DNA from: Escherichia phage LF82-23
Direction: 5' to 3' (one strand)
Sequence record: PV660458
Length of the DNA stretch: 42,378 bases
Shown: positions 1 to 42,378 of the stretch, piece after piece
Position numbering within the stretch: the stretch's first letter is position 1
Layout of the letters: each line of letters opens with the position of its first letter
Program-made: the position numbers and the translations under genes
The notes under the pieces: generated by a model
The model's database searches: none
Told to the model about the DNA's origin: nothing
Seen by the model: the letters and a program-made list of their open reading frames with translations, nothing else

Positions 1-306
1 ATGGCATCCGTGAACAAGCAGCTCGATGGGCTGCACCGGATGCTGGTGGAGTATCTGTCCGACCGCTTGGCCGACGCTCGTAGGAAAGATGAACATGGTA
101 ATATCATCGAACCTATGGCGGCGGCTGAGCTGTCCGTACTTCGCCAGTTCCTGAAAGATAACGGTATTCAGGCTGATAAAGACCACGCCGACGATTTACT
201 CGCGCTGCAAGAGCAGCTTAACAACGAGAAAACGGAAGCAGGTCGTAAAGATATCATGTCTGCTGCCATCAACTCAATCGCAGAAGATAGCGGGATGATG
301 CACTAA
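1..306 (+). CDS. probable terminase small subunit (DNA maturase A-like)
   Basis: 101-aa ORF starting at window base 1; stop overlaps the start of the large terminase ORF (TAATG at 304-308); AAGGAG at 42367-42372 at the window end would be its RBS if the sequence is circular. Assignment by position and size only. Confidence 0.5.
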   Translation: MASVNKQLDGLHRMLVEYLSDRLADARRKDEHGNIIEPMAAAELSVLRQFLKDNGIQADKDHADDLLALQEQLNNEKTEAGRKDIMSAAINSIAEDSGMMH

Positions 307-23156: not shown

Positions 23157-25589
23157 GTGGATTTACTTGCAGAGCAGATTCGACTTGAAGAAGAAGCGCG
23201 AGCCAGACACCGCGAGGGCTGGCTGGATAATATCAAAGAGGCGATGGCCAGTGGCCGCGCCGGGTCGGTGCCGTTGCTCCAGCGTATGATGGTTGAGGCT
23301 TATCCTCTGGTCGAAGCTGCGATGCAAGAAACCCTGAACGAAACGACCCGTGGGTATGGTGCGCAGTACCGGACGTACATGCGTGAGATTGGCACCAAAG
23401 CGTGTGCCTCTCTCGCACTGAGCATGGCGGTGTCCGGTGCTGCGTCGGAGCAGGCGGTACTCAGCCTGCTCAAGAGCATGGGCAAGGCACTGATGGCTGA
23501 GGTGGTGTACCTCCGGGCGAAGCAGACCGGGCCACAGCAGGCGGCGTACATGGAGCGCGTTAAGCAGGATGTGAAGAAGTCTCGCTCGAAGTCAGCGAAC
23601 CACGTCTACAACAAAGCGCGTGCGTCGGCGGCGAACGTTGGGGTGGAGATTGATGTGCTGCCGCAGCGTGCGCTGATTACCATTGGCAAGCTGATGATGA
23701 AGTGCGTCGAGCCAACTGGTCTGGTGTCCACGATTCGCGTCGGCGGCAACCAGCGGCAGCGCGGTACGGCACACTTTGCACTGCATGAGGATGTGCTGGC
23801 TACGATGAACGACTGGCTGGACATGCCGCGTGCTGATGGCATGTGCTGCCCACCGCTGATTATCCCGCCGAAGCAGATTGCGCCGAACGGTCGCAGCGGT
23901 ATGTGGCATTCGGATGGGCAGGCGGCGATGTACCGGGTCATGAGTCGCATGAACCACAAAGGGTATCGTGCGTTGAACGTTGACCCGACCCCCGTTATAG
24001 AGCCGTGTATGATGCTCAGCAGCGTTCCGTACCGAGTTAACCCAATGGTACTGGAGTTCCTGCGAACGAACCGTACAGGCGTTATGGGGCTGCCTGTGCC
24101 GCCTCGTGAGCCTACACTTCCGTTTACCATCCCCGCTGGTGTGAGCTTCGCGCAGTACATCAGCAAGTTCCCACCAGAGATGCAGCAGCAGATGGACGCT
24201 GAGGCTCATGAGTACAAGGTGAAGACTCGCTTGTATTACAATGAGTTGCGTAAGTTCACATCGCAGATGCTGGCGCTGAACGGTGCAGTCAAAGAAGCAG
24301 ACAGGTACGCCCAGTATGATAGGATTTATCTCCCGACTTACGCCGATACGCGGGGCCGAATTTATTATTCTTCGACCCTTAACCCTCAGTCTATCGACGC
24401 GGTGCGAGCGCTGCTCGAACTTGCTGAACCAGTGGCTCTCGGAAGTGAGGGGCTGTTCTGGCTCAAGGTTCATGTTGCGAATTGCTTCGGCTACGACGCA
24501 ACCGACTTCGATGACCGGGCGGCGTGGACGGACAAAACACTCCCCCGACTACGTGAGGCGTGCCGTCTTCCAGAGGCATTTGATTCGTTCTGGTCAGAGG
24601 CCGATAGCCCTATCTCAGCGTGGGCTGCATCTGTTGAACTCATTCGAGCTATCGACAGCGGAAGTCCTGAGACTTATCCCTGCCGAGTGGTTACGCAATG
24701 GGATGCTACATGTTCAGGTCTCCAACACCTCAGCGCAATGCTACGAGATGAAGTTGGGGGTGCTGCTGTCAATCTTATCAATAGCGTGGGGCGAAAGGCA
24801 GACATATATCTCAAGACGGCAGCAGCGGCGATGCAGGCTCTTGAAGATAGTGAAGCGCAGTCACCGACGCAGATGGGTACGTGGCTTGTTTCAATCGGCA
24901 TTGTACGGGCGATGGCTAAGAAACCAGTGATGACGTACGTGTACGGGGCAACCCGGCACGGGATGGTGGACTACTACTGCCTGTACCTGCGTGAGAACCG
25001 GGTCAAGCTACCGGACGGCAAGAGCCTGCTGGAGTGTGCGCAGTTCATCGCAGAGTTCATGTGGAATGCAATCCCTCGCGTTGTGCCGAAGGCGGCAGAG
25101 CTGATGGCGTGGTTGCAGGCTATCGCGGTGGAGGCGGCAGCCAACGGCGAGTACGTGGAAATCATTGCACCGTCAGGGTTGCGGGTGGTTAACCTGTACC
25201 AAGCTAGCAAGGAGACGATGCTCAACAACATCAACCTCATGGGTATCCACAGCATTAAGCTGCGCGAGTATCTGGACAAGCCGGACGGCAGGAAGTGTGC
25301 CGCTGCGATTGCTCCGAATTTCGTACACGCCATGGATGCCAGCCACATGATGAAGGTGCTGTGGGAGATGTGGAATAACGGGGTGTACATGGTATCCATC
25401 CACGATTCGTTCGGGGTGGCGGCTGCACATGCCGGGCTACTTCACAAGGTCATTCGTGAAAAGTTCGTGCAGATGTACGAGCAACATGACCCAATTCAAC
25501 AACTTGCTGTACGATACAATGCTGTTGCACCTGAACGTGGCAATCTGGATATCCAGCTTGTGAAACAATCAAGCAAGTTTTTCTGCTAA
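23157..25589 (+). CDS. single-subunit DNA-directed RNA polymerase (T7-like)
   Basis: [25 protein letters not shown] and VSIHDSFG match T7 RNAP catalytic segments ([20 protein letters not shown], HDSFG); GTG start with AAGGAG 5 nt upstream. Confidence 0.9.
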   Translation: [810 protein letters not shown]

Positions 25590-26568: not shown

Positions 26569-28134
26569 ATGACTCAAGACGCGCAGAACGTCAGCTATGA
26601 GTCTCTGTGGCAGAAGTACCGGGATAGTAACGTTGTCACGAAAGCGCGGGAGTACAGCCGCTACACACTGGCCAAGCTGGTGAGCGAGTACGACCGCAGT
26701 GACGTGGACGACATGAACCGCCAGCAGATTACTCGTGATTACCAGTCTGTCGGCGCTCTGCTCGTCAACAACCTGACCGCTCGGTTGGGTGAGTTCCTGT
26801 TCCCGGCTTCCGCACGATTCGTGAAGCTGAAATTAAACAAGGTGTCTGACCAACAGCGGCAGTCTATGTCTCAAGTTAATCAGGCGCTTATCACTATTGA
26901 GAAGGCCATCGTAGACAAAGCCAAAGAGAATGGCGGCTACGCTGACCTGCTCCAGTGCATTGCCCAACAAGCTGTGACCGGAAACGCCGCGCTGTACCGC
27001 GATATGGAAACTGGTTCGTACCGAGTGTACGGATTGGAATCCTTCGTGGTGCAGCGCGACGGTCGTGGTGTTGTGGTGGATGCTATTGTCAAGGAGCGCA
27101 TCCAGTGGGATTCTCTGCCGAAGGACTTTCAGAATGAGCTGAACTCCAAAGGCTTCCGCTGTGGTGGGAACAAACGCGTGTGGCTGTATACCCGCGTCCT
27201 TCGCGTTCAGAAGGACAGTGGTAACTACGGCTATGAAGTAACGCAGCAGATTGGCAACTACCAAGGCTGCGTCTATACCCCCGGTAAAGATTACTACCCT
27301 GAAAAAGTCTGCCCATGGTTATTCCCAGTGTGGTCTTTGAAGTCTGGCGAGCATTACGGTCGCGGGATTGTCGAAGACCACGCTGGGGATTTCGCACGTC
27401 TGTCGCTCCTGTCTGAGCATTCTGCTCTGTACATGCAGGAAGCGCTACGCGTGCTGTGGATGCTCACTGGTTCTGGCGGCAACGTCGATGACATTGAGAG
27501 CGCAGAGACTGGGCAGGTCATTCCACTCCAGAACGGCACCACGTTGTCGGGGCTGGAGGTCGGGGATTACCAGAAAGTTCAACAGGCCCGTGACGAAATC
27601 AACCAGATTGTGCAGCGACTGGCGCAAGCCTTCATGTACACTGGCGAGTTCCGTGACTCCGAACGTACCACCGCCACCGAAGTGCAGCAGGTAGCAACCA
27701 GCGCCGAGCGTGGGCTGGGTGGGCCGTACTCAATGCAGGCTAAGACCCTCCAGATTCCTCTGGCGTATGTCCTGCTCGCGGAGATTGACGAGTCCACCGT
27801 ACCAGATATCGTCGGCAACATCCTGTCGCTTCAAGTCGAAGCTGGCTTGGATGCTCTCGGTCGAAGCATTGAAGCTGAGACGCTTATCAGAGCGCTCTCC
27901 GACTCGCAGGCAGCAATGGTTGCTGTCCAAAATATTAATGGCGTTGCTAACACCATCGACCCTCAGAAAGTCCTTGAGGTTATCTTTGCCTCCAATGGTG
28001 TTGCGCTGGACGACTATCGTAAGTCGCCACAAGACTTGGCCCAAGAAGGTCAGGCCATCGACAATGCAGCCGCTGCCGCCGCTGGCGTACAGCCGGGCGC
28101 AGTTGATGTAGCGCCTAACATCGCACAGATTTAA
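26569..28134 (+). CDS. head-tail connector (portal) protein
   Basis: 521-aa ORF, first large gene of the structural block; synteny portal-scaffold-capsid-tail tube as in T7 gp8-gp12. Confidence 0.75.
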   Translation: MTQDAQNVSYESLWQKYRDSNVVTKAREYSRYTLAKLVSEYDRSDVDDMNRQQITRDYQSVGALLVNNLTARLGEFLFPASARFVKLKLNKVSDQQRQSMSQVNQALITIEKAIVDKAKENGGYADLLQCIAQQAVTGNAALYRDMETGSYRVYGLESFVVQRDGRGVVVDAIVKERIQWDSLPKDFQNELNSKGFRCGGNKRVWLYTRVLRVQKDSGNYGYEVTQQIGNYQGCVYTPGKDYYPEKVCPWLFPVWSLKSGEHYGRGIVEDHAGDFARLSLLSEHSALYMQEALRVLWMLTGSGGNVDDIESAETGQVIPLQNGTTLSGLEVGDYQKVQQARDEINQIVQRLAQAFMYTGEFRDSERTTATEVQQVATSAERGLGGPYSMQAKTLQIPLAYVLLAEIDESTVPDIVGNILSLQVEAGLDALGRSIEAETLIRALSDSQAAMVAVQNINGVANTIDPQKVLEVIFASNGVALDDYRKSPQDLAQEGQAIDNAAAAAAGVQPGAVDVAPNIAQI

Positions 28135-29391: not shown

Positions 29392-30384
29392 ATGGCTGAT
29401 AACGCTTATACCCCGAACCAGTTCCGTCCACACTGGGGTGGCGCGAACTCTGACAACGACATTCACCTTGAGGTGTATGACCGTGACGTGCAGACCCAGT
29501 TCATTTACAACTCCATCTTCCGTTCCGGTCTGACCAACTTCAAGTCTGTGGCTAACCAGTCCAACACTTGGCGTGGCGACCGTCTCGGCTCTGTGACCGT
29601 TAAAGGTCGTCGCTCTGGCGAGGCGCTGGACAACCAGCCAGTTCGCTCTGAGAAACTGATTGTCACTGTGGATACCGTGTCCTACATCCGTATCCCGATT
29701 GACTATCAGGACGACTGGACTGCGCCGGACTTCCGCGCCGAGCTGACCCGTAATATGGGTACTGCTCAGGCGAAGGCGTTCGACCAAGCACACGTCATCC
29801 AGCTCCAGAAGTCTGCTGACTTCGTGCCTCCGGCTTCTCTGGCAGGTGCGTTCAACGCAGGTATCAAGGAGCAGGTCACTCTGACTGGCACCGTGGCATC
29901 TGAGGAAGATGACGCGTCTGCGCTGGTGCATGGCCACAAGAAAGCTATCGAGGCGTTCATTCGCCGCGACGCTGACCTTGGCCGTCTGGTTACGCTGATT
30001 GACCCGGCGTGGTTCAGCATCCTGCTGGAGCACAAGAAACTGATGAACGTTGAGTTCACTGGTGGCCGTGGTGTCAACGACTTCGCAATGCGCCGTGTGG
30101 CTTACGTGAACGGTATCCGTATCATCGAGAGCAACGCGTTCCCGCAGGCGGCAATCACTGACCACATCCTCGGCCCTGACTTCAACGTCACTGCCGACGA
30201 GATTCAGCGCAAGATGATTATCTTCGACCCGTCTCTGGCTCTGGTCACTGTCGAAGCCCAGCCGCTGTTCAACCGCGTATGGGATGACGAACGTGAACTG
30301 ACCAACGTTCTGGATAGCTTCCACATGTACACCGTGGGCCAGCGTCGTCCAGACGTGGTGGCAGTCGTCACTACCGAGACCTAA
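29392..30384 (+). CDS. major capsid protein
   Basis: 330-aa ORF at the gp10 position; followed by a terminator-like hairpin. Confidence 0.8.
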   Translation: MADNAYTPNQFRPHWGGANSDNDIHLEVYDRDVQTQFIYNSIFRSGLTNFKSVANQSNTWRGDRLGSVTVKGRRSGEALDNQPVRSEKLIVTVDTVSYIRIPIDYQDDWTAPDFRAELTRNMGTAQAKAFDQAHVIQLQKSADFVPPASLAGAFNAGIKEQVTLTGTVASEEDDASALVHGHKKAIEAFIRRDADLGRLVTLIDPAWFSILLEHKKLMNVEFTGGRGVNDFAMRRVAYVNGIRIIESNAFPQAAITDHILGPDFNVTADEIQRKMIIFDPSLALVTVEAQPLFNRVWDDERELTNVLDSFHMYTVGQRRPDVVAVVTTET

Positions 30385-30440: not shown

Positions 30441-30989
30441 ATGACTCTACTCGAAGCAGTAAACATTGTTCTTCGAGCATTGTCCGAACACACCGTATCT
30501 TCAACTGAGATTCGAAACCCGTCCGTTACCCTTGCACTTGACAAGATTGGTATCGCTCAGGAAGAAGTTCTCACTGATGGTTGGTGGTTCAACAATATTC
30601 GAATCACCATCCCTCGCGAAACGGATGGTAGGGTTAAATATCCCGCCGACGCTCTTAGCTTCATCCCTGATGGGTTTGAGTGCATTGTGCGCGGCGGGTA
30701 TCTTTACAACGCGCAATCCCAAACCTTTGTTTTTACAGAAGATGTTCCGGGATTGGTGACTTATGATTTGGGCTGGGATGACCTACCAAGTCCGGTGCAA
30801 AGACTCGTTGCTTATCAAGCAGCTATCTCTGCGTATGCCGATGACATGGGAGACAACCCACCTGCCAGCGTGACGGGCGGTTACGCCATGGCGCTCCAGC
30901 AGTGCCAGACCATTCATACCCGTCAGCGTCGATTCAATGCTCGCCAGCGTAAGAGCTGGTGGCGCTATGAGAGTGCTCGGAGAGGATAA
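30441..30989 (+). CDS. tail tubular protein A
   Basis: 182-aa ORF at the gp11 position. Confidence 0.7.
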   Translation: MTLLEAVNIVLRALSEHTVSSTEIRNPSVTLALDKIGIAQEEVLTDGWWFNNIRITIPRETDGRVKYPADALSFIPDGFECIVRGGYLYNAQSQTFVFTEDVPGLVTYDLGWDDLPSPVQRLVAYQAAISAYADDMGDNPPASVTGGYAMALQQCQTIHTRQRRFNARQRKSWWRYESARRG

Positions 30990-33439
30990 TGCCAGTATAC
31001 CAAGGCGCTTATAAATCCATCCTCGGCGGCGTGAGCCAGCAGGTCTATACCGACCGCCAGCTATCGCAGGTTGAGGAACAGGTCAACATGACCTCTGATA
31101 CTGTTCGTGGCCTGCGTAAACGCCCCGGCACCCGACTGCACCGTACTGTGGATTCCACTAACGCGAACGTCTGGAGCCTTGGTAACTTCGGCCACTTACG
31201 CTTCTATACCACTAACCTCGGATGGGGCATCACCACGTTCATCGTCAACACGAAGACTGGTTATGTCACGTCCATCGTCGAGACCGAAACTGTCCAGTTC
31301 ATGGGCCAGTCCAGCTATCTCGTCACGAACAACCCCGACGACATTGTATTCGCTACCGTGGGCAACACCATGTATGTTGCCAACTGCTCCAAGCTGCCCG
31401 TGCTTCTGGAGAACGAGACGCGTATGAATCCGGGTCGCCGGGGTTACTACTTCGTTATCGCTGGTGCCTACGGCAAGCAGTTCACTGTTCGCGTGCAGAC
31501 CAAGCTCGGCGCGGTCAGCGCAACGTACACTACGCCTGAAAGCTCAGCGACCACGGGCAATCCATCGCAGGAGTCCACGCCGGAGTACATTGTCGGTCAG
31601 CTCAAGTCTCAGCTCGACACGCATGTAGGCGGGGCTGAGGGTATCGAAGTCGTGGCACAGGACGGCGCGTACCTGTACATCCAGTGTACCGAAGCTGCTG
31701 CTGACATGAACGTGTCCACCTCAACTGGCTCAAGCTATGCCATTGCCTCCAACACCCACACTGTTGACCTGACCACTAAGCTGCCAGCGCGACTGCCTGC
31801 ATCTGCTGGTGGATTCATCATGACTGTTGGCGATGCTAACTTTGCCCAGTATTTCCAGTGGAGTTACAACGACTCCCGCTGGATTGAGAAAGGTGCTTAC
31901 GGCTCCCCCACCGGGATTAACCCAAGCACTATGCCATTGGTGTTCAGCACGACCTCGACAGCGAACCAGCACACCTTTGCTCAGGGTGTGTGGCCGGGGC
32001 GACTGGCTGGCGATGACAAGACCAATGCCATCCCAGCATTCACCGATGCCGATGGCGTGGGCATTACCGGGCTGGCCTCCTTCCAAGGTCGCCTGATTGT
32101 GTTCTCCGGGCCGTACATCACCATGGGTTCCAGTGACAAGGAAGACCGCAACAACTTCTTCCGTACGACTGTGACGCAGGTGTTGGACGACGACCGTATC
32201 GAGTTCACTGCGTCCAGCTTCGCCGGGGCATCGTTCCGGTACGGCATCCCGTTCAACTCCGACCTGATTCTGGCCAGCGAAGAACACCAAGCTGTCATCC
32301 CCGGACGTAACCAAATCCTCACGCCGAACAACGCCACCGCTGTGTTGACCTCGACGTACCAGATGGACACTGGCGTAGCGCCGACCACTTCTGGCCGCAG
32401 CCTGTATTACGCGTACCCGCGCTCGAACAGCTCGTTCTCCATCAAGGAGATGCTGCCGTCCGGCTACACGGATTTGCAGTACGTGAGTCAGGATGTGACC
32501 GACCACCTACCGACCTATCTGGAAGGGGCCAACTCATATATCTCTGCCAGCACCACGAACAACATCGTCGTGTTTGGCTCGACCACTGAGAAGTCAACGC
32601 TCTACGTGAACGAGTACCTCTGGTCTGGTGACGAGAAGGTTCTGTCCTCGTGGCATCGCTGGGAAATCTACGGCACCGTGCAGGCTGCGTGGTTCGTCCG
32701 TGAGGTTCTGGTTGTGCTGGTTGAGCAGCAGGGCCACATGAACTTGCTCACGCTATCTATGCGAGACTCCCCTGACCCTACTGACCCGGCGCGATTCCTC
32801 CCGGCCATCGACTACGCCCAGTTGATGACTGTGACGAACCCGGCCACGGACAGTTCGTACATTCAGTTCGCCGCCACTGGTGAGCAGAAAGCGCTGTGGG
32901 ATATCATTCAGTACCGCTACCAGACTGAGGGCAACTGGGATTTCATGACGAACGTAGTGCCGTCCGGCAACTACATCGGGGCTGAGGTGGGTGTTAAATC
33001 CATCGACACCACGAACCGCCGTGTGTATCTCCAGCCTTCATACGGCAGCACCTCGCTGTATGTGGGCCTGCGCTTCAAAGCAGTGTTCAGTCCTACGCCG
33101 CCACGAGTGTTCAATCAGGACGGCTCGTACATGGACGTGAACAAGATGGTCATCATGCACTACAACTTCACGTTGCGGTACACGAGCCTGTTCAATATCA
33201 CAGCCAGCGACCGGGGCGCGTACTCTGCGCTGAACATCATCAGCAGCCCTATCCGGTACACCAGCCAAGAGCTGGGTCTGGAGTCTGCGATGTTGGCTAA
33301 GCGTGCGCACTTGAAGGTTCGCATGGGTCTTGAGGTGGAATCCAGCAGCATGGTCGTGGACTCGTCTACGGCTGGCGACCTGAACATTCAGGGGCTTGGC
33401 TACTACATCAAGTTCTACAACAAAGTTCGGAGAATCTAA
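30989..33439 (+). CDS. tail tubular protein B
   Basis: 816-aa ORF at the gp12 position; ATAATG overlap with the preceding gene. Confidence 0.7.
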   Translation: MPVYQGAYKSILGGVSQQVYTDRQLSQVEEQVNMTSDTVRGLRKRPGTRLHRTVDSTNANVWSLGNFGHLRFYTTNLGWGITTFIVNTKTGYVTSIVETETVQFMGQSSYLVTNNPDDIVFATVGNTMYVANCSKLPVLLENETRMNPGRRGYYFVIAGAYGKQFTVRVQTKLGAVSATYTTPESSATTGNPSQESTPEYIVGQLKSQLDTHVGGAEGIEVVAQDGAYLYIQCTEAAADMNVSTSTGSSYAIASNTHTVDLTTKLPARLPASAGGFIMTVGDANFAQYFQWSYNDSRWIEKGAYGSPTGINPSTMPLVFSTTSTANQHTFAQGVWPGRLAGDDKTNAIPAFTDADGVGITGLASFQGRLIVFSGPYITMGSSDKEDRNNFFRTTVTQVLDDDRIEFTASSFAGASFRYGIPFNSDLILASEEHQAVIPGRNQILTPNNATAVLTSTYQMDTGVAPTTSGRSLYYAYPRSNSSFSIKEMLPSGYTDLQYVSQDVTDHLPTYLEGANSYISASTTNNIVVFGSTTEKSTLYVNEYLWSGDEKVLSSWHRWEIYGTVQAAWFVREVLVVLVEQQGHMNLLTLSMRDSPDPTDPARFLPAIDYAQLMTVTNPATDSSYIQFAATGEQKALWDIIQYRYQTEGNWDFMTNVVPSGNYIGAEVGVKSIDTTNRRVYLQPSYGSTSLYVGLRFKAVFSPTPPRVFNQDGSYMDVNKMVIMHYNFTLRYTSLFNITASDRGAYSALNIISSPIRYTSQELGLESAMLAKRAHLKVRMGLEVESSSMVVDSSTAGDLNIQGLGYYIKFYNKVRRI

Positions 33440-33440
33440 T

Positions 33441-34181
33441 ATGGGTTGGGCAGCTTTTGCTAAAGCTGGTGCCGACGCTACGAACTCCTTCATCACCACC
33501 TACGCTCAAGGACGAGCGGAACGTGCGCAGATGAAGGCTGTGCAGGCAGAGAACGAACGCCTGAACAAGCAGACGTGGCAGGCAATGGGCCAGCGCATCA
33601 ACACCGTGAATCTCCAGCGTGGCCTGCTCCGGCAGCAGACTGGCACCGACCTATACAACATCAACAAGGAAGCTAACCGGGCATCCGGCGCGAGCATTAA
33701 CAATGCCGCCGCTGCCGGGATTGAAGGTGCCTCTGTGGACGAGGCGGTCACGGATATCAGCCGTCAGAATCAGGAAAGCCAAGCGCAGACCCGGTTCAAC
33801 GAGCAGATTCAGGAGATGAACCTCGACACCAGCATCAACGATATCATCGACACCGCAGTCGCAGCTCAGCGTTATTCGCAGAAGCCAGCGAGCAACAGCA
33901 TGATTGTGGGCCGCGCCATTGGCGTATCCGCTATGCAGTTTGCTTCAAGCCTCGCGCAGACCAGCTTCGACTACATGCCGACCGAAGGTGCGAAAGGTAC
34001 TGGCACGCAGAGTGGCAGTGCAGGCGCTACAGCGTCAACGTTCAGTAATCTCGGCTCAACTACAGCGAGTTATGGAACAACTAACTGGATGCAAAAGGCT
34101 GGGGAATTTAACCCGGTTCCGGCGCAATATGATTCAAATCGTTACATGGGCTACGGCTCAGGTTCAATCTTTGGGGGCTAA
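33441..34181 (+). CDS. internal virion protein A (gp14-like)
   Basis: Position and size; GGAG 8 nt upstream of ATG 33441; ORF-track start 33396 rejected. Confidence 0.55.
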   Translation: MGWAAFAKAGADATNSFITTYAQGRAERAQMKAVQAENERLNKQTWQAMGQRINTVNLQRGLLRQQTGTDLYNINKEANRASGASINNAAAAGIEGASVDEAVTDISRQNQESQAQTRFNEQIQEMNLDTSINDIIDTAVAAQRYSQKPASNSMIVGRAIGVSAMQFASSLAQTSFDYMPTEGAKGTGTQSGSAGATASTFSNLGSTTASYGTTNWMQKAGEFNPVPAQYDSNRYMGYGSGSIFGG

Positions 34182-34183
34182 TC

Positions 34184-36880
34184 ATGGCTACTATGCGTGA
34201 CCAGCGTGGCGCTAACCTTAATGCTGCGCAGCAGGGATTACCAAATGTGCAGCAGGCGCAGACTCCGTTTAGTCTCGCAGGCCGCGATACTCGCATCGAC
34301 ACGTTTCCTACCGAGTCCATTCAGCGCGTACTGAACATGGCCAGCGCACTTGCTGGCCGTGTCACTGAGCGTGCGAACGAGGAAGAATACCTCAAGGGTG
34401 CCAATGCCGCCGCGAGCGGTAAGGCTGTTGAGGATTTGGATTCGAACTGGCTGACTGCCCAGTTCCAGAAGGCTGGTTACAACGACCAGTACAAGCGTAT
34501 GCAGATGGCGAACGTCGCCTCTGAAATCTCGGCTAACATGCCGCAGTACGCGAAAATGAGTCCTGACGAGTTCTTGAAGGTGGTGGACGAGAAGACCACT
34601 GGCCTGTTCGAGAACACTGATGGTATGACGCTGAACGGTCGTAAGTCTCTGCTGGAGAACCAGCTCACGTTCAGCAACACCCTTATCCGTACGCAGGCTG
34701 CCCAGCATGGTAAGTATCTGGTTGAGCAGCGTGCAGCTATGTACAATGCGCAGGGTAACACTCTTGTTACTCTGGCGGCTCAGGCCAAGGCGACTGGTGA
34801 CGGCGGCGCGTACGCTAACGCTACGGCTGCGACCATGGCGTGGGCCAAGTCCATTCTGGCAGACGATAAGCTGCCGCTGGAAACTCGACGGACTCAGGTA
34901 ACGTCCATGATGGGGCTGATGCTCCAGCAGGATTTGCGTACCCCTGTCGAGACTGCTGTTAACTCCGGGCTGTTCAACGAGCTGCCTGCCGAGGACTTGG
35001 CCAAGCTGCAAGGTCAGATTCGTGAATCCAAATCTCGTACCGAGGTTCAGGACAACATGGGTCTGCTGGCGCAGAAGGGTCAGCTCGATGCGCGTCAGGC
35101 AGTGTTCGGTGACGTTACGCCGGAGCAGTACACGCAGACGCTCCAGCAGATGGTGGACAACAAGCTGATTAGTGCTGGTGGTTTCAGCTCTGCTATCGAG
35201 TCCTTCTACAAGGATTATGCGAAGCAGGCCAAGGCCAGCCAGCTCGGTCAGGCGTACGCTACCGGGAACCAGACGTACATGCTCCAGCAGGGTGCGAGTG
35301 AACAGGATGGTGCTGACGCATTCATCAAGGCTCGCATGAAGCAGCCGGGCGCGACGGCAAGCTCCGTGGCATTCGACCTGCTGCAAGTTGGCGCACAGAC
35401 TGGCTTCCCTTCTGCGTATAAGTCTGCTGCCAAACTGATTGAACCATCCCTGTCGAACTTCGGCACCGTGGATGAAATGAACCCTGATGCAGCCGCTACC
35501 GTGACCGGGCTGATTGACCGCGTGGCCGTGGCCGAGAATCAGGGTGATAAGACCGCGTGGACTAAACTCCTGTCCGGTCTGTCCGAGGAAAACCAAGAGA
35601 AGATGGTGTACATGCGCGAGCAGATTAAGGCCGGGCGCACCATCGACCAAGCTGGTCAGGGTTACATCAAGCAGCAGCAGGACTACGCTGGCTTAACCCC
35701 GGCACAGAAATCTCAAATCCTCACGCAGCGTCAATCTGACGTTAACACTGTGGTGAACTCCCTTGAGGCTCAGGGCTTCTTTTCTCGCACTTGGCAGGGG
35801 CTGGCTGGTCTGTTCTCAGACACTCAGCAGAACCTGTTCCAAGCTCGCGTCGCATCTGGTGACATTACTGCCGCGCAGGAAATGTCGGAGGTGTCTGCCG
35901 CGTACCGCGAGGAACTGCAAGCTGTCGTCCTCAAGAACCCGAACGTGACCAAAGATGGTATGGAAGCCCTCGCATCTGCGAAGCTGGCTAACCGTGTCCT
36001 CCGCGTCGGGGAAACCACATTCAGTCCCGGCTCTGTGCTTATCGCACCGAGAGGCCAAACTGTTCAGTCTATGCTCGGCTTGCCTGCTGACGTAGCCCCC
36101 GACCGTATCGGTCGCGCTATCGCCGCACTTGACCAGACCAAGGCACCAGAAGGCTTCGAGTCGTCCTACTCGTTTATGCCAGATGGCTCTCTGAACGTTC
36201 AGTTCTTCAACAAGCAAGGTGACGTTTCCCCGAACTCGGTACGCATTCTGCCGCAGGTCGTGCAGGAACGCATCCGTGAAGACGACCGTGCAGCGGCCAC
36301 TGCCAATAACGAAGTCTATGGCGACGGGAAACTCTTTGTTGATAAGTCCAGTAACATCGGGATTCGCGTGAATGGCGTGAATACTGCTGGGGTAGACGAG
36401 CAGCGTATGCTTGTTGCCCGTGGCAAACTGATTGACTTCGAAGGTATCCGCAATACCACTTACCGCGACAGCACTGGTGTGCAGACGAACGGTATTGGTA
36501 TTTCTGACCGCAGCCCGTACTTCTCGGAAGGTCAGGCATCCGGTATGAAAGGCGGTACTGAATGGTCTCCGCGAACTATCCATGATACGTTCGTGCAGCA
36601 CACCAACATGGTGGCCCGGCAGATGCCCGGCACTGCTGCTGCACTGGGGTGGAGTCGTGACAACGATGCCCAGTTCCAGTTCATGATGCAGATGGGTTAT
36701 CAGGCAGGTTCAAGCTGGTATCGCACCGATGGCGCGTACAGCAAGCTGGCTGATGCAATCCGTGTTGGCGACCAAGAGAAAGCTGTTCAGGCTCTGGCTG
36801 CGACTCCGGCTTACAAGCTGTCGCAGGACGAGCGTAAGCAGTATTACGTCCAAACTCTACTCGCAGGTATGCAGGAATGA
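34184..36880 (+). CDS. internal virion protein B (gp15-like)
   Basis: 898-aa ORF at the gp15 position. Confidence 0.6.
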   Translation: MATMRDQRGANLNAAQQGLPNVQQAQTPFSLAGRDTRIDTFPTESIQRVLNMASALAGRVTERANEEEYLKGANAAASGKAVEDLDSNWLTAQFQKAGYNDQYKRMQMANVASEISANMPQYAKMSPDEFLKVVDEKTTGLFENTDGMTLNGRKSLLENQLTFSNTLIRTQAAQHGKYLVEQRAAMYNAQGNTLVTLAAQAKATGDGGAYANATAATMAWAKSILADDKLPLETRRTQVTSMMGLMLQQDLRTPVETAVNSGLFNELPAEDLAKLQGQIRESKSRTEVQDNMGLLAQKGQLDARQAVFGDVTPEQYTQTLQQMVDNKLISAGGFSSAIESFYKDYAKQAKASQLGQAYATGNQTYMLQQGASEQDGADAFIKARMKQPGATASSVAFDLLQVGAQTGFPSAYKSAAKLIEPSLSNFGTVDEMNPDAAATVTGLIDRVAVAENQGDKTAWTKLLSGLSEENQEKMVYMREQIKAGRTIDQAGQGYIKQQQDYAGLTPAQKSQILTQRQSDVNTVVNSLEAQGFFSRTWQGLAGLFSDTQQNLFQARVASGDITAAQEMSEVSAAYREELQAVVLKNPNVTKDGMEALASAKLANRVLRVGETTFSPGSVLIAPRGQTVQSMLGLPADVAPDRIGRAIAALDQTKAPEGFESSYSFMPDGSLNVQFFNKQGDVSPNSVRILPQVVQERIREDDRAAATANNEVYGDGKLFVDKSSNIGIRVNGVNTAGVDEQRMLVARGKLIDFEGIRNTTYRDSTGVQTNGIGISDRSPYFSEGQASGMKGGTEWSPRTIHDTFVQHTNMVARQMPGTAAALGWSRDNDAQFQFMMQMGYQAGSSWYRTDGAYSKLADAIRVGDQEKAVQALAATPAYKLSQDERKQYYVQTLLAGMQE

Positions 36881-39800
36881 TTATCACACAAGAATCGCTC
36901 GACAAGTTCATGGCTCCCAAGCAGGGGGCCAATGCCCCTACGCTGGTGATTCCAGCTCCCGTAAAGACTGCTGACCTCAGCACTCCGCTGCAAGATGCCA
37001 CTCGTCAGGGTGCCGTCGAGCAGTTCGACAAGATGCAGGAACTGGAAGCGACTCCGATGGCCACGGCGTTGAGCGCTTCTGTGAAGAACTGGGATACCAC
37101 CCAGCTCTTTGATGCGGCAATCAACAAGCCTGTGTTTCAGGCTGACCCAAACTTCCACCCTAACGAGGCGTTGCAGAACGTCCAGTTCCCGGTGGGGGAG
37201 GATGACCGTAAGTTCCTGTTCAAATCCAAATCCATGGACGAGTTCAACTGGCGCACCCAGCAGCTCCAAGAGATGCGCGAGCGTACCCAGTTGGCTCACA
37301 CTGCCCCGGTGATGAACGCGGTTCTGCAATTTGCTGACCCGCTGTACCTCGCCACTGACCTGCTCTCGATGGGAGCAGGCACTGCCCTGAAATTAGGTCG
37401 CCTCGGAACCGCCGCTGTCGGTGCAGCTTCAACTGCTGCCACTATGACAGCGGTGGGTAATGAAGCACGCCCAGTGTCTCAGAACGAAATCATCTTCGCG
37501 GCTGCCCTGCACGGGGCGGCCACCACTGCATTCTATCGCCCGGCCCCGGTACAGCGCTCGCTGGCCGACCTGTCGCCGGAGGAATTTGCAGCGGAGATGC
37601 AGCGTCGTAATGGCATCGACCCGAACAACCCGCCGCAGTTCGACCCGAACAACGCCATGTCACCTATGGCAATGTCCTTGGGCTTCGGCGGTCGTGGTGC
37701 AACCGTGGTTGATGAAGTGCCTGAGTCCATCCGTGCCGCCGCACAACGTGGCCTCGACCTTGCTCGCCGTGGTGAGCAGACCAACCCTAAGCGTCCGTTC
37801 CTTGAATGGTCTCTGTTCAAGTCATTCAGCCAGCATTCCGACGAAGCCAGTGCTCTGGCCGGGCGACTGCTGGATGACCCGCTGAACCCGAACATGACCT
37901 CTGCTGCCGCAATCCAGCGCGAGACTCAGGCTCGCTTCGGCGTGCTGCTGAACCAGTACGAGGACACCCTGCGTAATGCGCTGAGCACTGATGGCTGGAC
38001 TAACATCCGGCGCTTCCGTGACCCGGTTGGTTATCGCCGGGCGCAGCAGGAGTTCGAAGCTGCTGTCCGTCTCGAACTGGACAAGCGCATGATTGACAAA
38101 GAGTTCAGAGGTGCCAACGAGAAGGTGGCCGCCGCCGCTGACCGACTGGGGGAATACTCCCGCGCCGTTGGCCGCGAGCTGGAAACGAAGGGCATGGTTG
38201 AGCCGGGCTTCGTAGACAAGAACCCGTACTACTACCCGCGCCGGATGAACGTGACCAAGATTGAGCAGGCTGAGCAGTTGCTCGGTAAGAAGCCATTCAT
38301 GAAGCAGATGACGACTGCGGTGCAGCGCGGTATCGGTACTGACCGTCCGACTGCCAACGTCATCGCCCATGCCATGGTTGAGCGTGCTCGCCGCAAGGGT
38401 TATGGTGTTGACAACTCCGGTATGATTATCAACAAGGAGGGCCGCGATGAACTGCTCGAAATCATTGAGAACTCGAAAGGTCTCGACGAGGCTGCCAAGG
38501 CCCGTGCTTCCGCACTCCTTCGTGAGTCTGGCTCGGACGCTGGCCGACCGTCGATGCTCAAGAGCCGTATCAACATCGACATGATGCACACGCTTGGCCC
38601 GAACTTGCAGGTGCGTGACCTGTTCGACGACAGCATCACCAGCATGATGGACAGCTACAACCGCCGCATTACTGGGCGACTGGCTCTGCATGAGGCTGGA
38701 CTGGGTACTGACGCTGAACGTGTCGCCGCTCGCGAGGCTCTGGCCAAATCCATCAAGGATGGTACGGCTCGTCGCCAAGCGCTGGCGCAGTACGATAACA
38801 TCATGGCCTACTATCAGGGTGCCCCGGTCGGTGAGGAAATGCCGCAGTTCATGCGCCAGCTCTCTGCGCTGACTCAGGCTACTGGTCTGGCTGCATCTGG
38901 CCTGTGGCAGTTGGTGGAATACGGCACGATGATGCAACGTTTCGGGGCAGTCAATACGTTTCGCGCCATGATGCGTACAATTCCCGAAGCACGCGCACTA
39001 TTTAAGCAAATGAGGGTGTCTACTAAGGAAGGTCGTCAATTGGCTCTGGATGCCGAGGAAGCGCTGACTGCGGCTGTGGCGAGTGATATTCGTATGCGCC
39101 CAATCATGCAGCACTACGACGACATGTTCTCTGCCGACAAGTCTCCGTGGGTTATGCGTCTTGAACACGCCCGTGATGCCACGATGTTCATCAACATGCA
39201 GAAATACATTCACTTCCACCAGACTCGAACCAACGCTGCTCTCGTGATGCAGACGCTGCGTAAGGCAGCCGAAGGTGATGCCAAGGCTATTGCAGCCATG
39301 AAAACCTACGGTGCCAATGACGCGCTGCTGTCTGATATTCGCAAGCAGGTTGGTACTCATGGCACCAAGCCAGATGCTTGGGATGAAGGGGTATTCAATC
39401 GCTCTCGCATTGTCATGATGAATGCCATGGATGACGCTATTGTTCGCGCTCGCGTAGGTGAGCTGCCTGCATTTGCTGAGTTCAGTACGCTGGGTAAGTT
39501 CCTGTTTACGTTCCGTCGATTCGTCGCGGCGACGCACAACAAGACTCTGGTTGGTACGTGGAACCGTGAGGGTGCCCGTGGCATGGCTACGCTCATGGCG
39601 TACCAGTACCCGCTGGCAATGATGGCCACTGCTGCTAACAACGTGATTTCCGGTAAGGCATTCTCCGACCCGGACACTATGGCTCCGAACAAACTGGCTG
39701 GTCAGGCACTGAACTACCTTGGTGCTATTGGCTTTGCCTCTGAGTTCACTGGAGTTCTGACCGGGCAGCAGCGCAGCTTCGGTGCGCCGGGCCTGCTGTT

Positions 39801-39984
39801 CCTTGACCGCGCTTACGGTGTGGCGGGTGCAGCTACCAGTGCTGCTGGTGGCGTGCTGACTGGCGATACTGAGCAGGCAGTGTCTGGCGCTCGCAAAGCG
39901 GCAGGCAACATCATCCAAGCTATCCCACTCATTTCAATCGTGCCGGGAGTCCGAGCACTCAACGAAGCAGTTAAGGGTGAATAA
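36877..39984 (+). CDS. internal virion protein C (gp16-like)
   Basis: 1035-aa ORF at the gp16 position; ATGA overlap with the preceding gene. Confidence 0.6.
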   Translation: MIITQESLDKFMAPKQGANAPTLVIPAPVKTADLSTPLQDATRQGAVEQFDKMQELEATPMATALSASVKNWDTTQLFDAAINKPVFQADPNFHPNEALQNVQFPVGEDDRKFLFKSKSMDEFNWRTQQLQEMRERTQLAHTAPVMNAVLQFADPLYLATDLLSMGAGTALKLGRLGTAAVGAASTAATMTAVGNEARPVSQNEIIFAAALHGAATTAFYRPAPVQRSLADLSPEEFAAEMQRRNGIDPNNPPQFDPNNAMSPMAMSLGFGGRGATVVDEVPESIRAAAQRGLDLARRGEQTNPKRPFLEWSLFKSFSQHSDEASALAGRLLDDPLNPNMTSAAAIQRETQARFGVLLNQYEDTLRNALSTDGWTNIRRFRDPVGYRRAQQEFEAAVRLELDKRMIDKEFRGANEKVAAAADRLGEYSRAVGRELETKGMVEPGFVDKNPYYYPRRMNVTKIEQAEQLLGKKPFMKQMTTAVQRGIGTDRPTANVIAHAMVERARRKGYGVDNSGMIINKEGRDELLEIIENSKGLDEAAKARASALLRESGSDAGRPSMLKSRINIDMMHTLGPNLQVRDLFDDSITSMMDSYNRRITGRLALHEAGLGTDAERVAAREALAKSIKDGTARRQALAQYDNIMAYYQGAPVGEEMPQFMRQLSALTQATGLAASGLWQLVEYGTMMQRFGAVNTFRAMMRTIPEARALFKQMRVSTKEGRQLALDAEEALTAAVASDIRMRPIMQHYDDMFSADKSPWVMRLEHARDATMFINMQKYIHFHQTRTNAALVMQTLRKAAEGDAKAIAAMKTYGANDALLSDIRKQVGTHGTKPDAWDEGVFNRSRIVMMNAMDDAIVRARVGELPAFAEFSTLGKFLFTFRRFVAATHNKTLVGTWNREGARGMATLMAYQYPLAMMATAANNVISGKAFSDPDTMAPNKLAGQALNYLGAIGFASEFTGVLTGQQRSFGAPGLLFLDRAYGVAGAATSAAGGVLTGDTEQAVSGARKAAGNIIQAIPLISIVPGVRALNEAVKGE

Positions 39985-42368
39985 TGGCGAACAGCTATAA
40001 CGCTTACGTGGCAAACGGAACGCAGACCGCGTTCCTTGTCACCTTTGAGCAACGCGTGTTCACTGAGATTCAGGTGTACCTCAACTCCGAACTCCAGACG
40101 AGCGGGTACACCTACAACTCTGTGACCAAACAGATTATCTTCGACACCGCCCCGCTCGCCGGGGTGATTGTCCGACTCCAACGTTACACCTCTGAGGTTC
40201 TACTGAACAAGTTCGGCCAAGACGCTGCCTTCACTGGGCAGAACCTTGACGAGAACTTCGAGCAGATTCTGTTCAAGGCCGAGGAAACTCAGGAAGCATG
40301 GCTCGCGCCGCTTGACCGCGCCGTCCGTGTTCCAAACTCTGAGGTCTCTATCAACGCATTACCGAACGTCGCTGGCCGCCGCAACAAGGCATTGGGCTTT
40401 GACAGCAATGGCCAGCCGTTCATGATTCCTCTGGTCGATATCCCGGACTCCGCTCTGGCGATTGCTCTGGCAATGGCTGACGGCGGTAAGTGGATTGGTA
40501 CTCTTGGTGGTGGCACGTTCCTCGACCGTCAGGATACCGTATGCCTGTCCGAGTTCACCAACAATACCGGGTACGCTTCTACCGCCGCTGCGGTGCAGGC
40601 TTGCTTCGATTATGCCAAGGCCAACAACAAAGTTGTTGATGCCCGTGGCTGGGAAGGTACTGTCAGCTCCACTGTCCTGATGGACGGTATTGAGGTTGTC
40701 GGTGGTACGTGGAATGGTACAGCAGACATTCGACTGCTGAACGCCACGTTCCGCAACTTCTCTGCGTCAAAGGTTCGTGTCTGCTACTGGGGCGGCAATG
40801 TACGCATTGCTGACTACGAGTTCACCGACCACCCATCGGCATCGAAAGTTGCCAGTATTCTGTTCCAAGGCAACATCGCCGGGGGCAGCTACGTCATTGA
40901 GAACGGCGTACACCGCAATGGCTACTTCGGTATTCTCCAGCAAGGTACTGGCGAAACCATTGACAACGGTGTGATTCGCAACATCGCGCTCATGGATATG
41001 GCTGGTGACGGTATTGAGATGAACGTAATCAACAAGCACTATGATGGTGGCCTGTCGATTGAGAACATCTACCTCGAAAATATCAACGGTATCAACCCAA
41101 CCTCCAACCCATCCTTCGTATCCAACTGGGGTATCGGGATTGGTCTGGCTGGTCAAGGGCCGTTTGGCTGGGATGCTGCTGAAACCCAATACGCGAAGAA
41201 CATCACAGTCCGTGGTGTTCATGCTCCGCGCGGCGTGCGACAAGTCATCCACTTCGAGGTGGCCAAGAACTGTTCAGTGTATGACGTACACGCCAACCCT
41301 GACCTGACTGTTTCCAACGGTACGGGCCTGACCGCCGCTGGTGTTATCACCTACGGCTGCAAGGACATGGTTATTGACGGGGTGTACGGTGAGCCTATCG
41401 TCGGCACCACAGGCACTGACCCGGCTGCTGTTCGTCTGGTGATGTGTGAGTGGGGTGCTAACCAAGCGGGTGCAGGTGGTGTGCCGGGTGCATCTAACCC
41501 GTCATTCAACATGACGCTGCGCAACATCTACACCAAGACCGGGCGTGTCTACGCTGGTGTTGGCTCCGATGATGTGAACACCAACGTATACCACCTTGAG
41601 AACATCCACTGCTACCGTCTGAGCCTCTTTGGTGTGGCAACCCTCCTGAACATGACCAACGTGACGGGTGTTGACTTCGACTGCGTAGGCGATGACTCCA
41701 GCGGCGGTACGTCCTCTAATGGTGTGTACCCGCGACGCAAGACCTGCCTGAACATGGTGAACGTGAACTTCTATGGGCCGGGCATGACAGAGGGTGCGCT
41801 GTACAGTAAGGCTCGCTACACGGATATCAGTACTCTGAACTCCAACGTGCGTGCTATTCCGTACTCCAACATCCAAGGTAACGTTGGCGTTATCCTGTCT
41901 CCGGTCAACCGTATGTACACGCTACCAAACGACCTTGCGACACTGACTGGCGGGGAGTTCCCAACTGGTAGGGAGTTCTGCGAGGGTACGGTACTGTTCA
42001 AGACCGATGGCTCCGGTGGCAACTTCATAGTTACCAAGTTCGGTGCCTACATTCCCAATGACGGCAACAACTTCAAGGTGCGTGCTGCTGCCGCTGGCCA
42101 GACTTATCTGGAGCAGAACCTGACTCCGGCTGGTACTCAGGCTTCTACCTCGTGGCTGTACCATAAGCCAATCTCTGCTGGTACTCGACTGAACATTCCG
42201 GGTGCCGGGCCGGGCGGCGATACGCTCACTGTGACGGTGGTGCGTGCTCCGTATCAGGTGGACAACAACATCGGAAACCCGGTGCGCATCGACATTACCC
42301 CGGCCATTGTGACGGCAATCCCTGCGGGAACGCAGCTCGCCGCTACCTACCCGGTGGCCTACATCTAA
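39984..42368 (+). CDS. tail fibre/tailspike with T7 gp17-like N-terminal anchor and beta-helix (polysaccharide depolymerase-like) domain
   Basis: N-terminus AFLVTFEQRVFTEIQVYLN...FTGQNLDENFEQI follows the T7 gp17 adaptor pattern; central region shows periodic N/G/I/V-rich repeats typical of right-handed beta-helix (pectate-lyase-like) tailspikes. Confidence 0.7.
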   Translation: MANSYNAYVANGTQTAFLVTFEQRVFTEIQVYLNSELQTSGYTYNSVTKQIIFDTAPLAGVIVRLQRYTSEVLLNKFGQDAAFTGQNLDENFEQILFKAEETQEAWLAPLDRAVRVPNSEVSINALPNVAGRRNKALGFDSNGQPFMIPLVDIPDSALAIALAMADGGKWIGTLGGGTFLDRQDTVCLSEFTNNTGYASTAAAVQACFDYAKANNKVVDARGWEGTVSSTVLMDGIEVVGGTWNGTADIRLLNATFRNFSASKVRVCYWGGNVRIADYEFTDHPSASKVASILFQGNIAGGSYVIENGVHRNGYFGILQQGTGETIDNGVIRNIALMDMAGDGIEMNVINKHYDGGLSIENIYLENINGINPTSNPSFVSNWGIGIGLAGQGPFGWDAAETQYAKNITVRGVHAPRGVRQVIHFEVAKNCSVYDVHANPDLTVSNGTGLTAAGVITYGCKDMVIDGVYGEPIVGTTGTDPAAVRLVMCEWGANQAGAGGVPGASNPSFNMTLRNIYTKTGRVYAGVGSDDVNTNVYHLENIHCYRLSLFGVATLLNMTNVTGVDFDCVGDDSSGGTSSNGVYPRRKTCLNMVNVNFYGPGMTEGALYSKARYTDISTLNSNVRAIPYSNIQGNVGVILSPVNRMYTLPNDLATLTGGEFPTGREFCEGTVLFKTDGSGGNFIVTKFGAYIPNDGNNFKVRAAAAGQTYLEQNLTPAGTQASTSWLYHKPISAGTRLNIPGAGPGGDTLTVTVVRAPYQVDNNIGNPVRIDITPAIVTAIPAGTQLAATYPVAYI

Positions 42369-42378
42369 GGAGAAACCC

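Follow-up and report, generated by a model that had tools for sequence, protein, structure and literature searches.

A predicted tailspike colanidase of a Bonnellvirus-type phage, combining a gp17-type tail anchor with a beta-helix enzyme module

Introduction

Colanic acid, also called M antigen, is a loosely attached slime exopolysaccharide that is common to many Enterobacteriaceae, and it is neither a serotype-specific K capsule nor an LPS (PMC9143390). Phage J8-65, which was isolated on mucoid E. coli K-12 and is active on it, forms halos and lowers the level of high-MW colanic acid. Acting on purified colanic acid, the recombinant enzyme of phage NST1 produces reducing ends and sets repeat units free, and it also removes the capsule layer (PMC9143390). 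For the homologous protein gp150 of phage Phi92, hydrolysis of the beta-1,4 Glc-Fuc bond has been reported (Xu et al. 2025, as cited in PMC13450770). A literature search for a link between Bonnellvirus and colanic acid returned nothing relevant.

Here, we establish the gene, domain architecture, fold, homology, and genome context of a tailspike of Escherichia phage LF82-23 (PV660458). The window, by which we mean the whole stretch of 42,378 nucleotides that was analysed, is a complete Bonnellvirus-type genome of ~42.4 kb, permuted to begin at the small terminase gene. The tailspike is of an already known kind, the close relatives of which have been annotated, assayed, and structurally solved, and it is ordinary in the sense that it is almost identical to these proteins. 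The features discussed below are collected in Table 1.

Table 1. Positions in the window of the tailspike gene, its parts, and related genes
Feature	Positions	Strand	Evidence
Tailspike colanidase gene (predicted function), complete	39984..42368	+	794 aa plus TAA; ORF listing, phrog_6117, J8-65/NST1 identity, 90%-identity cluster
N-terminal tail anchor, T7 gp17-type, aa 1-~112	39984..40319	+	PF03906, tail-fibre PHROGs, profile and AF2/Foldseek
Neck/linker, aa ~113-161	40320..40466	+	moves together with the anchor module
Right-handed parallel beta-helix catalytic domain, aa ~162-630 (C-terminal boundary approximate)	40467..41873	+	6e0v match, AF2, Foldseek
Most conserved core/candidate active site, aa 304-467	40893..41384	+	invariant alignment columns, WcaM match
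C-terminal domain, aa ~631-794, mixed beta with short helices	41874..42365	+	6e0v alignment to the last residue; AF2
Tail tubular protein A	30441..30989	+	phrog_446 'tail protein', E 8e-48
Tail tubular protein B	30989..33439	+	phrog_457 'tail protein', E 1e-181
Single-subunit RNA polymerase	23157..25589		

Genome Context

The genes for a T7-like RNA polymerase, portal, capsid, tail tubular proteins A and B, and internal virion proteins lie on one strand of the window and are syntenic with those of J8-65. In nucleotide comparisons with J8-65 and the '-sur' phages, 96-100% of the structural half aligns at 85-94.6% identity and the replicative half at 90-94%; this substantial identity and the collinearity with J8-65 place the phage in Bonnellvirus (Autographiviridae). 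The closest whole-genome relatives include the Enterobacter phages BHUENT7 and SS-2025, and the hosts of close relatives are E. coli K-12, Enterobacter, Kosakonia, and Cronobacter. In T7-like tails, tail tubular proteins A and B are the adaptor and nozzle at which a gp17-type anchor docks, and T7-type versions of both are encoded here. The possibility of a further receptor-binding protein, or of a KP32-type branched spike system, was considered and dropped, as the small terminase gene directly follows the tailspike gene, which is also the arrangement in J8-65.

Identity of the Gene Product and Its Substrate

The reading frame runs uninterrupted from ATG to TAA, and its product is matched over residues 89-794 by phrog_6117, "colanic acid degradation" (E 7e-236). 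All 16 megablast hits of the gene are full-length, at 80.9-91.5% nucleotide identity; the label tailspike colanidase or colanic acid-degrading is carried by 12 of the 13 annotated records (the RZ4 record reads hypothetical), and the three others have no annotation. In addition, clustering at 90% identity groups the protein with those proteins of J8-65, smaasur, and Kc261 that are annotated as 'tailspike colanidase', and the cluster also has members from phages of Cronobacter and Kosakonia and from an assembly of Enterobacter bugandensis. Full-length homology to experimentally characterised colanidases is found through phrog_6117, NST1, J8-65, and Phi92 gp150. Judged from its sequence and relatives, the product is very probably a tailspike colanidase of a Bonnellvirus-type phage that acts on colanic acid, and we hold the explanation developed below, taken as a whole, with the same high confidence.

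The spread of hosts raises the question of whether the same fold and anchor could have been turned to another colanic-acid-like capsule or exopolysaccharide, for instance of Enterobacter, Kosakonia, or Cronobacter, or of the Klebsiella K108 type. The two Enterobacter phages among the closest genomes and the mixed origin of the cluster would fit such a shift, as would the existence of divergent alleles with the same anchor (P0005-P0007), in which the enzyme part is 40-55% identical to that of the window protein; moreover, a title in the reference list of PMC13385381 likens the K108 capsule to colanic acid. Nevertheless, we consider a shifted specificity improbable, because the protein is 96% identical to that of J8-65, a phage both isolated and active on mucoid E. 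coli K-12, and shares its 90% cluster with smaasur, which comes from K-12 MG1655. Differing hosts alone do not imply a differing substrate, since the named genera belong to the Enterobacteriaceae, a family described as secreting colanic acid (PMC9143390).

Action on colanic acid hence remains the preferred reading, and it narrows what the preliminary description had suggested, namely an encapsulated Gram-negative host, for example one of the Enterobacteriaceae, and a capsule, exopolysaccharide, or LPS as substrate. The hosts of the relatives agree with the family, but 'encapsulated' is only loosely apt because their isolation hosts include the ordinary strain K-12 MG1655. As to the substrate, the exopolysaccharide option stands and can be named as colanic acid slime, whereas a serotype-specific K capsule or LPS does not fit. 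The GC content, which had been estimated by eye as above 50%, is 55.3% in the gene and 53-58% in the window.

The N-Terminal Anchor and Neck

The N-terminal ~110 residues had been likened to the tail-fibre adaptor of T7. BLASTP of residues 1-160 against T7 gp17 (NC_001604) gave only noise and no meaningful alignment, and the anchor was therefore assessed by profiles and structure. The Pfam profile PF03906 (Phage T7 tail fibre N-terminal domain) matches residues 2-104, with 21.8 bits (E 1.7e-4) for the full-length protein against a gathering cut-off of 25.2 bits, and with 25.5 bits, marginally over that cut-off, for the isolated first 170 residues. Among 41 sequences scanned (the N-terminus of the window protein and 40 relatives), 17 match PF03906, with a best E of 5.9e-12. 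Tail-fibre PHROGs match residues 4-104, and a profile built from the N-terminus finds, in the PDB, the anchors of fibres and spikes from podovirus tails of known structure.

Residues 1-183 had pLDDT <50 in the full-length AF2 run, and the N-terminus was refolded from a dedicated alignment obtained by a second database search. The resulting model of residues 1-170 has a mean pLDDT of 77, reaching 85-96 over residues 1-70, and is laid out as a beta-sandwich (aa 1-69) followed by a long helix (72-112). Its Foldseek matches include 8es4 (E 2e-6), 9efk, 8i4m, 7y22, and 8vbx, and a match to the T7 portal-tail complex was also obtained (9jz0_b; E 6.6e-3, target-normalised TM 0.64, rmsd 4.0 A). In fold, the model is thus the equivalent of the anchors that have been resolved for fibres and spikes in podovirus tail complexes. 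A direct pairwise resemblance to T7 gp17 did not emerge from BLASTP or from hhalign of the anchor (probability 45%, E 2e-4); because of these two results, the likeness to T7 is to be read at the level of the family rather than as specific to T7. In this form the proposal of a gp17-type anchor holds: the domain belongs to the wider gp17-type family and is closest to phiKMV-like and other podovirus anchors, not to T7.

The anchor and the enzyme module are exchanged independently among phages. The neck is 92-98% conserved in P0005 and P0006, the enzyme part of which differs as described above, and homologues with other types of anchor align only past aa ~160-200. Homology to Phi92 gp150 starts at aa 162, that is, after the anchor and neck. 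The recombination junction between anchor and enzyme lies, judged from these alignments, at about aa 160-200. The protein is a clean example of a receptor-binding protein assembled from exchangeable anchor and enzyme modules. Its practical value is modest, and the tailspike alone opens no new question.

The Enzyme Domain and Its Conserved Core

The sequence of PDB entry 6e0v (Phi92 gp150) matches residues 162-794 with an E of 7.8e-65. In the AF2 model, pLDDT is mostly >85 at residues 190-794, and a long run of short strands extends over residues 217-626. The top PDB match of the full model in Foldseek is 6e0v_A (E 1.5e-35, target-normalised TM 0.67, 28% identity), followed by the beta-helix tailspikes of Sf6, HK620, and CBA120, and also by AlgE4; the placement of domains in this monomer model is unreliable because the global rmsd to 6e0v_A is high (18 A). 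Both the right-handed beta-helix and the C-terminal domain of the colanidases, as known from 6E0V, are present in the model. The C-terminal domain is kept in all colanidases including Phi92 gp150, with F659, P660, G740-G745, and T777 invariant. An intramolecular chaperone or peptidase domain at the C-terminus was considered as well, and was dropped in view of the lack of a family match and the homology of the mature 6E0V chain up to the last residue. Structure prediction with Foldseek, and comparison with depolymerases of known specificity, had been named in the preliminary description as ways of checking its beta-helix depolymerase-like domain; the former shows the helix, and the latter leads to the colanidases of J8-65, NST1, and Phi92.

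Conservation is highest in the core, aa 304-467, which carries three invariant motifs, GDGIEMNV (D342, E345, and N347), NWGIGIGLAG (W382), and RQVIHFE (R419, Q420, H423, and E425). These eight residues are invariant in the 29-sequence alignment A1, which comprises the window protein and 28 homologues, and they are also present in WcaM, a bacterial protein discussed below, and in Phi92 gp150, which was compared separately in a pairwise alignment. On the strength of their invariance, D342, E345, and E425 are put forward as the likeliest candidates for catalytic or substrate-binding carboxylates; no published assignment of catalytic residues was found.

The beta-helix fold invites the possibility that the enzyme cuts by beta-elimination, as a polysaccharide lyase, rather than as a glycoside hydrolase. 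Many beta-helix depolymerases are lyases, the distant Foldseek matches include alginate lyases/epimerases and PL6 enzymes, and the DNS reducing-end assay applied to NST1 (PMC9143390) cannot tell the two chemistries apart. However, the Glc-beta-1,4-Fuc bond reported to be cut by the Phi92 homologue lacks a uronic acid where a lyase would require it, and this homologue is called a hydrolase in what PMC13450770 relates of it; likewise, PMC9143390 describes the enzyme of NST1 as a hydrolase, with intact repeat units as the products released. The invariant residues are the carboxylates D342, E345, and E425, and an evident Ca-binding lyase signature appears to be absent. Taken together, these points make a lyase very improbable and favour a hydrolase, by analogy with the homologues and by way of a secondary citation.

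A purely adhesive fibre or spike, with a degenerate beta-helix and no catalysis, is so improbable as to be nearly negligible. Nothing specific speaks for it, apart from the general fact that other phages have beta-helix spikes without activity, and every A1-invariant motif shared with WcaM is intact in the window protein, which is, in addition, near-identical to enzymes of demonstrated activity.

Relation to the Host Protein WcaM

The catalytic core of the tailspike is homologous to WcaM, a protein of the bacterial host that is encoded in the colanic acid (wca) biosynthesis cluster. The NCBIfam model WcaM (TIGR04004) matches residues 304-467 with an E of 1.8e-16, and BLASTP against a verified WcaM (P0033) gives 34% identity at an E of 5e-16. 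The tailspike is nonetheless a WcaM homologue and not a WcaM, because its score is 59.9 bits against an equivalog cut-off of 794.6 bits and its alignment to the model is confined to these residues; genuine WcaM proteins score 856-906 bits. WcaM has the motifs GDxIExNV, NWGIGIGLAG, and RQxxHxE in common with the tailspike core, and both proteins carry the precomputed Pfam assignment PF27800. Unlike the tailspike, WcaM is ~465 aa long, begins with a signal-like sequence, and has neither a phage anchor nor the colanidase C-terminal domain.

A serious but still tentative possibility is that WcaM serves the cell as a colanidase of its own, in chain trimming or release, as might be compared with AlgL, PslG, and BcsZ in other exopolysaccharide systems, and that the module was exchanged between phage and host. 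A literature search for a link of WcaM to phage colanidases or to hydrolase activity, the WceF paper included, found nothing relevant. Since PF27800 already unites WcaM and the tailspike, only the functional inference is new, and it concerns WcaM more than the tailspike. If it is true, a direct route to testing the function of WcaM would be open through the phage enzymes, together with the D342/E345/E425 motif and the structure 6E0V.

Proposed Mechanism

The spike would be the single receptor-binding and receptor-destroying tailspike of the phage, a phiKMV/LIMEzero-like member of the Autographiviridae. The anchor would fix it, presumably as a trimer and in six copies per virion, where tail tubular proteins A and B meet. 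[quoted passage not shown] If the enzyme behaves like Phi92 gp150, it would cut the beta-1,4 linkage between glucose and fucose and yield repeat-unit oligosaccharides. In this manner, the virion could bore its way through the slime of colanic acid around E. coli, Enterobacter, and hosts related to them, towards a putative secondary receptor in the outer membrane, and free or virion-borne enzyme could give rise to spreading halos such as those seen with J8-65.

Comparison with Known Systems

The closest described protein is gp40 of the Bonnellvirus J8-65 (YP_009101389, 'tailspike colanidase / colanic acid degradation'), which is also 794 aa long and, at 96% identity without gaps, differs by 34 substitutions. 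Its gene occupies the same position, between that of a gp16-like internal virion protein and the small terminase gene, the latter following at a distance of 10 nt. With an identity of only 88.9% in the tailspike DNA and of ~85% in the structural half of the genome, the phage around the gene is a different one from J8-65.

The colanic acid-degrading protein of NST1 (ADI49571, HM214492) is 88% identical over its full length, with 790 rather than 794 aa and two small indels. Its anchor and neck are near-identical, residues 1-199 differing at 2 positions only, and the substitutions lie mostly in the beta-helix, at residues 240-600. As the beta-helix is the least conserved part in comparison with NST1 (68-90% per 50-residue block in the NST1-like P0002/P0003), a difference in fine specificity, such as one concerning the state of acetylation or pyruvylation, is possible.

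The Phi92 gp150 colanidase (PDB 6E0V/6E0W) shares with the window protein a homologous beta-helix and C-terminal domain, at ~28-35% identity, and all of the core motifs. Phi92 is, however, a myovirus, and its gp150 has no gp17-type anchor, the chain beginning ~30 residues ahead of the homologous region. For the N-terminal part, the common profile and fold, with the Pfam match noted above, are those of the gp17-type anchors of T7, HRP29 gp44, PhiM1 gp47, the phiAB6 tailspike, and Kp7/Kp9. Downstream of the anchor, T7 gp17 continues into a coiled-coil shaft and a tip domain, whereas the window protein has the beta-helix enzyme in that place.

Genomic location of the tailspike gene

The preliminary description had placed a tailspike gene at window position 39984, and this feature is genuine, its coordinates coinciding exactly with an uninterrupted reading frame. 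The start codon and the TAA that closes the preceding gene, which encodes a 1035-aa internal virion protein, have one base in common (TAATG; window 39982-39986), an overlap that suggests translational coupling. The ATG is preceded, at a distance of 6 nt, by the purine-rich stretch AAGGG. GC content is 55.3% for the gene and 53-58% across the window, where every long ORF is read from the + strand.

Features of the window and conserved motifs of the tailspike (A1, alignment of 29 sequences: the window tailspike and 28 homologues; residue numbers refer to the window tailspike)
Feature	Position	Strand	Basis
Small terminase	1..306	+	PHROG match
Large terminase	306..2066	+	PHROG match
Single-subunit RNA polymerase	23157..25589	+	PHROG match
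Portal	26569..28134	+	PHROG match
Major capsid	29392..30384	+	PHROG match
Tail tubular proteins A and B	30441..33439	+	PHROG match
Internal virion proteins (n=3)	33396..39984	+	PHROG match
Tailspike ORF, 794 aa, uninterrupted ATG to TAA	39984..42368	+	ORF listing
GDGIEMNV motif	D342, E345, N347		Invariant in A1
NWGIGIGLAG motif	from W382		Invariant in A1
RQVIHFE motif	R419, Q420, H423, E425		Invariant in A1

The small terminase gene starts with its ATG at base 1 of the window; at the other end, only GGAGAAACCC remains after the tailspike stop. The ribosome-binding site of the small terminase gene (TAAGGAGAAACCC) forms the extreme end of the window, directly 3' of the tailspike stop (42366-42378). 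The gene order is that of Escherichia phage J8-65, the type species of Bonnellvirus (Autographiviridae), earlier described as phiKMV/LIMEzero-like, where a 'colanic acid degradation' gene follows the last internal virion protein and the small terminase gene lies 10 nt downstream, a spacing identical in the window. Because the tailspike stop stands at the window end, the small terminase ATG at base 1 and the order matches that of J8-65, we conclude that the window is a complete genome of ~42.4 kb, permuted to begin with the small terminase gene. The best whole-genome matches, Enterobacter phages BHUENT7 and SS-2025 and Escherichia phages Ec1-ASingh, megetsur and mellemsur, reach only 93-94.6% nucleotide identity, so the customary 95% criterion would make this phage a Bonnellvirus species of its own.

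Anchor module

Residues 2-104 align with the T7 tail fibre N-terminal domain of Pfam (PF03906). The score is 21.8 bits in the full-length scan, slightly below the 25.2-bit threshold, and 25.5 bits, slightly above it, on the isolated N-terminus; the domain was matched in 17 of 41 N-termini scanned (the window's own and 40 relatives). Several tail-fibre PHROGs match residues 4-104. A profile of eight diverse N-termini matches the solved podovirus tail anchors of 23sh gp9 (E 6.5e-10), PhiM1 gp47, the phiAB6 tailspike and HRP29 gp44, and more weakly 8e4g and 8dsp, ~165-aa chains labelled just 'Tail fiber protein'. BLASTP of the anchor against T7 gp17 itself gave no match, and hhalign paired residues 1-104 with T7 gp17 1-115 at E 2e-4 and a probability of only 45%.

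The anchor region was uninformative in the first, full-length AlphaFold2 model. A second model of residues 1-170, built on a 41-sequence alignment, shows a beta-sandwich (1-69) at pLDDT 85-96, followed by a long helix (72-112). Nearly all Foldseek matches to this model are fibre anchors of podovirus portal-tail complexes, including that of DNA-ejected T7 (9jz0_b, E 6.6e-3, TM 0.64, rmsd 4.0 A). The earlier assignment of a T7 gp17-type anchor of about 110 residues thus holds at the family level, but the closest anchors are those of other podoviruses and not that of T7.

Enzyme module

From residue 162 to the C-terminal residue 794, the sequence aligns with that of the crystallised Phi92 gp150 colanidase tailspike (6E0V/6E0W; E 7.8e-65). 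With 29 homologues as input, AlphaFold2 modelled the full-length protein at pLDDT mostly >85 over residues 190-794; in this part the model shows a capping helix (200-213), many short strands (217-626) and a mixed C-terminal domain. In a Foldseek search of the PDB, 6E0V ranks first (E 1.5e-35, TM 0.67 normalised to target), followed by the right-handed beta-helices of Sf6, HK620, CBA120 TSP2/3, AlgE4 and GH87. The run of strands, together with these matches to 6E0V and to classic beta-helix tailspikes and enzymes, confirms the beta-helix that had been proposed.

The invariant columns of A1 (n=29) cluster in the three motifs listed in the table. Judged by conservation alone, the carboxylates of D342, E345 and E425 would be the best catalytic candidates. 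A spike that binds without catalysis is very unlikely, as all invariant motifs are intact.

Relation to WcaM

An NCBIfam model, 'colanic acid biosynthesis protein WcaM', matches residues 304-467 (window 40893-41384) at E 1.8e-16. Identity of the tailspike with WcaM was rejected, its score being 60 bits against an equivalog cut-off of 795 bits, whereas three ~465-aa proteins from the database search score 856-906 bits and are genuine WcaM. WcaM is 34% identical to the tailspike core and keeps all three motifs (GDxIExNV, NWGIGIGLAG and RQxxHxE), and one precomputed Pfam accession, PF27800, is common to both. On these comparisons, the phage colanidase core is homologous to WcaM of the host wca cluster, and WcaM itself may therefore act on colanic acid. 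This hints at a module shared by host and phage; our literature search found no paper on the link.

Module exchange

Per-block identities to the window tailspike in the homologues P0005 and P0006 are 92-98% over residues 1-200 and 40-55% in the enzyme part. For enzyme homologues that have a different N-terminus, the alignment starts only at about residue 160-200; the module junction lies in this region, and recombination has swapped enzyme modules there. Across P0005-P0007, anchor and neck (window 39984-40580) are kept at 92-98% and the enzyme (40581-42365) at 40-55%; the 'unique version of tailspike colanidase' that PMC7552041 describes in phage Lidtsur is probably of this type.

Alternative N-termini of the colanidase module include the P22-type head-binding PF09008 and the TSP1/Gp66-type PF18668, on contigs as large as 154 kb; therefore, the module is spread over contigs of very different size with differing anchor types. 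Among the homologues P0008-P0027, the tail fibre protein of Kosakonia phage Kc166B exemplifies the PF09008 fusion, and some PF18668 fusions also carry PF26208. Conversely, the gp17-type anchor also precedes unrelated beta-helix domains (PF13229 and PF12708). Its closest non-enterobacterial relatives come from metagenome bins of Alphaproteobacteria (Rhodospirillales, Micavibrio; P0032, P0035, P0037 and P0038-P0060), where the anchor is joined to pectate-lyase-like domains (PF12708). Some of the contigs measure 216-470 kb, and these proteins may be gp17-type spikes that are carried by prophages or have been domesticated.

Proposed mechanism and comparison with known colanidases

The gp17-type anchors of T7-like tails dock as trimers at the adaptor/nozzle junction. 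Combining knowledge of such tails with the homologue literature, we propose that residues 1-~112 would fix the spike to the tail, that colanic acid would be bound along the beta-helix and its backbone cut endolytically, and that this cleavage would open a way for the virion through the slime layer down to an outer-membrane receptor. For the window tailspike, we infer oligomeric state, docking site, cleaved bond, catalytic residues and secondary receptor.

On mucoid E. coli, phage J8-65 produces halos that expand and that T7 can invade, and it reduces the high-molecular-weight colanic acid fraction (PMC4179555). The recombinant NST1 enzyme releases reducing ends from purified colanic acid with repeat units as product, brings its average mass down from 8.7 MDa to 107 kDa and visibly removes the capsule layer (PMC9143390). 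Phi92 gp150 reportedly hydrolyses the beta-1,4 glucose-fucose linkage (Xu et al. 2025, as cited in PMC13450770). Given the cleavage site and products described for these homologues, a lyase is unlikely.

phrog_6117, 'colanic acid degradation', matches residues 89-794 (E 7e-236). Megablast with the gene returned 16 phage records, all covering it in full at 80.9-91.5% nucleotide identity; three are without annotation, 12 of the 13 others are labelled tailspike colanidase or colanic acid-degrading protein, and the homologue of Cronobacter phage RZ4 is labelled hypothetical. A shifted substrate specificity is conceivable, since relatives come from Enterobacter, Kosakonia and Cronobacter; however, these are all Enterobacteriaceae, a family described as secreting colanic acid, and the window allele shares 96% identity with an allele that acts on E. 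coli K-12.

The 90%-identity cluster of the tailspike includes the J8-65, smaasur, Kc261 and RZ4 proteins. Another member by this clustering is P0101 (WP_052954283.1), which RefSeq files under Enterobacter bugandensis as a hypothetical protein; its 42.7 kb contig appears to be a Bonnellvirus-type phage genome that was assembled together with the bacterial isolate. The exact tailspike sequence is already present in a public Logan assembly.

Anchor profile and fold matches, the 6E0V fold and phrog_6117 together support the original reading of an anchor joined to a depolymerase. With gapless 96% amino acid identity to J8-65 gp40 and 88% identity to the NST1 colanic acid-degrading protein, the tailspike is a near-identical allele of a well-known, annotated, biochemically and structurally characterised protein type.
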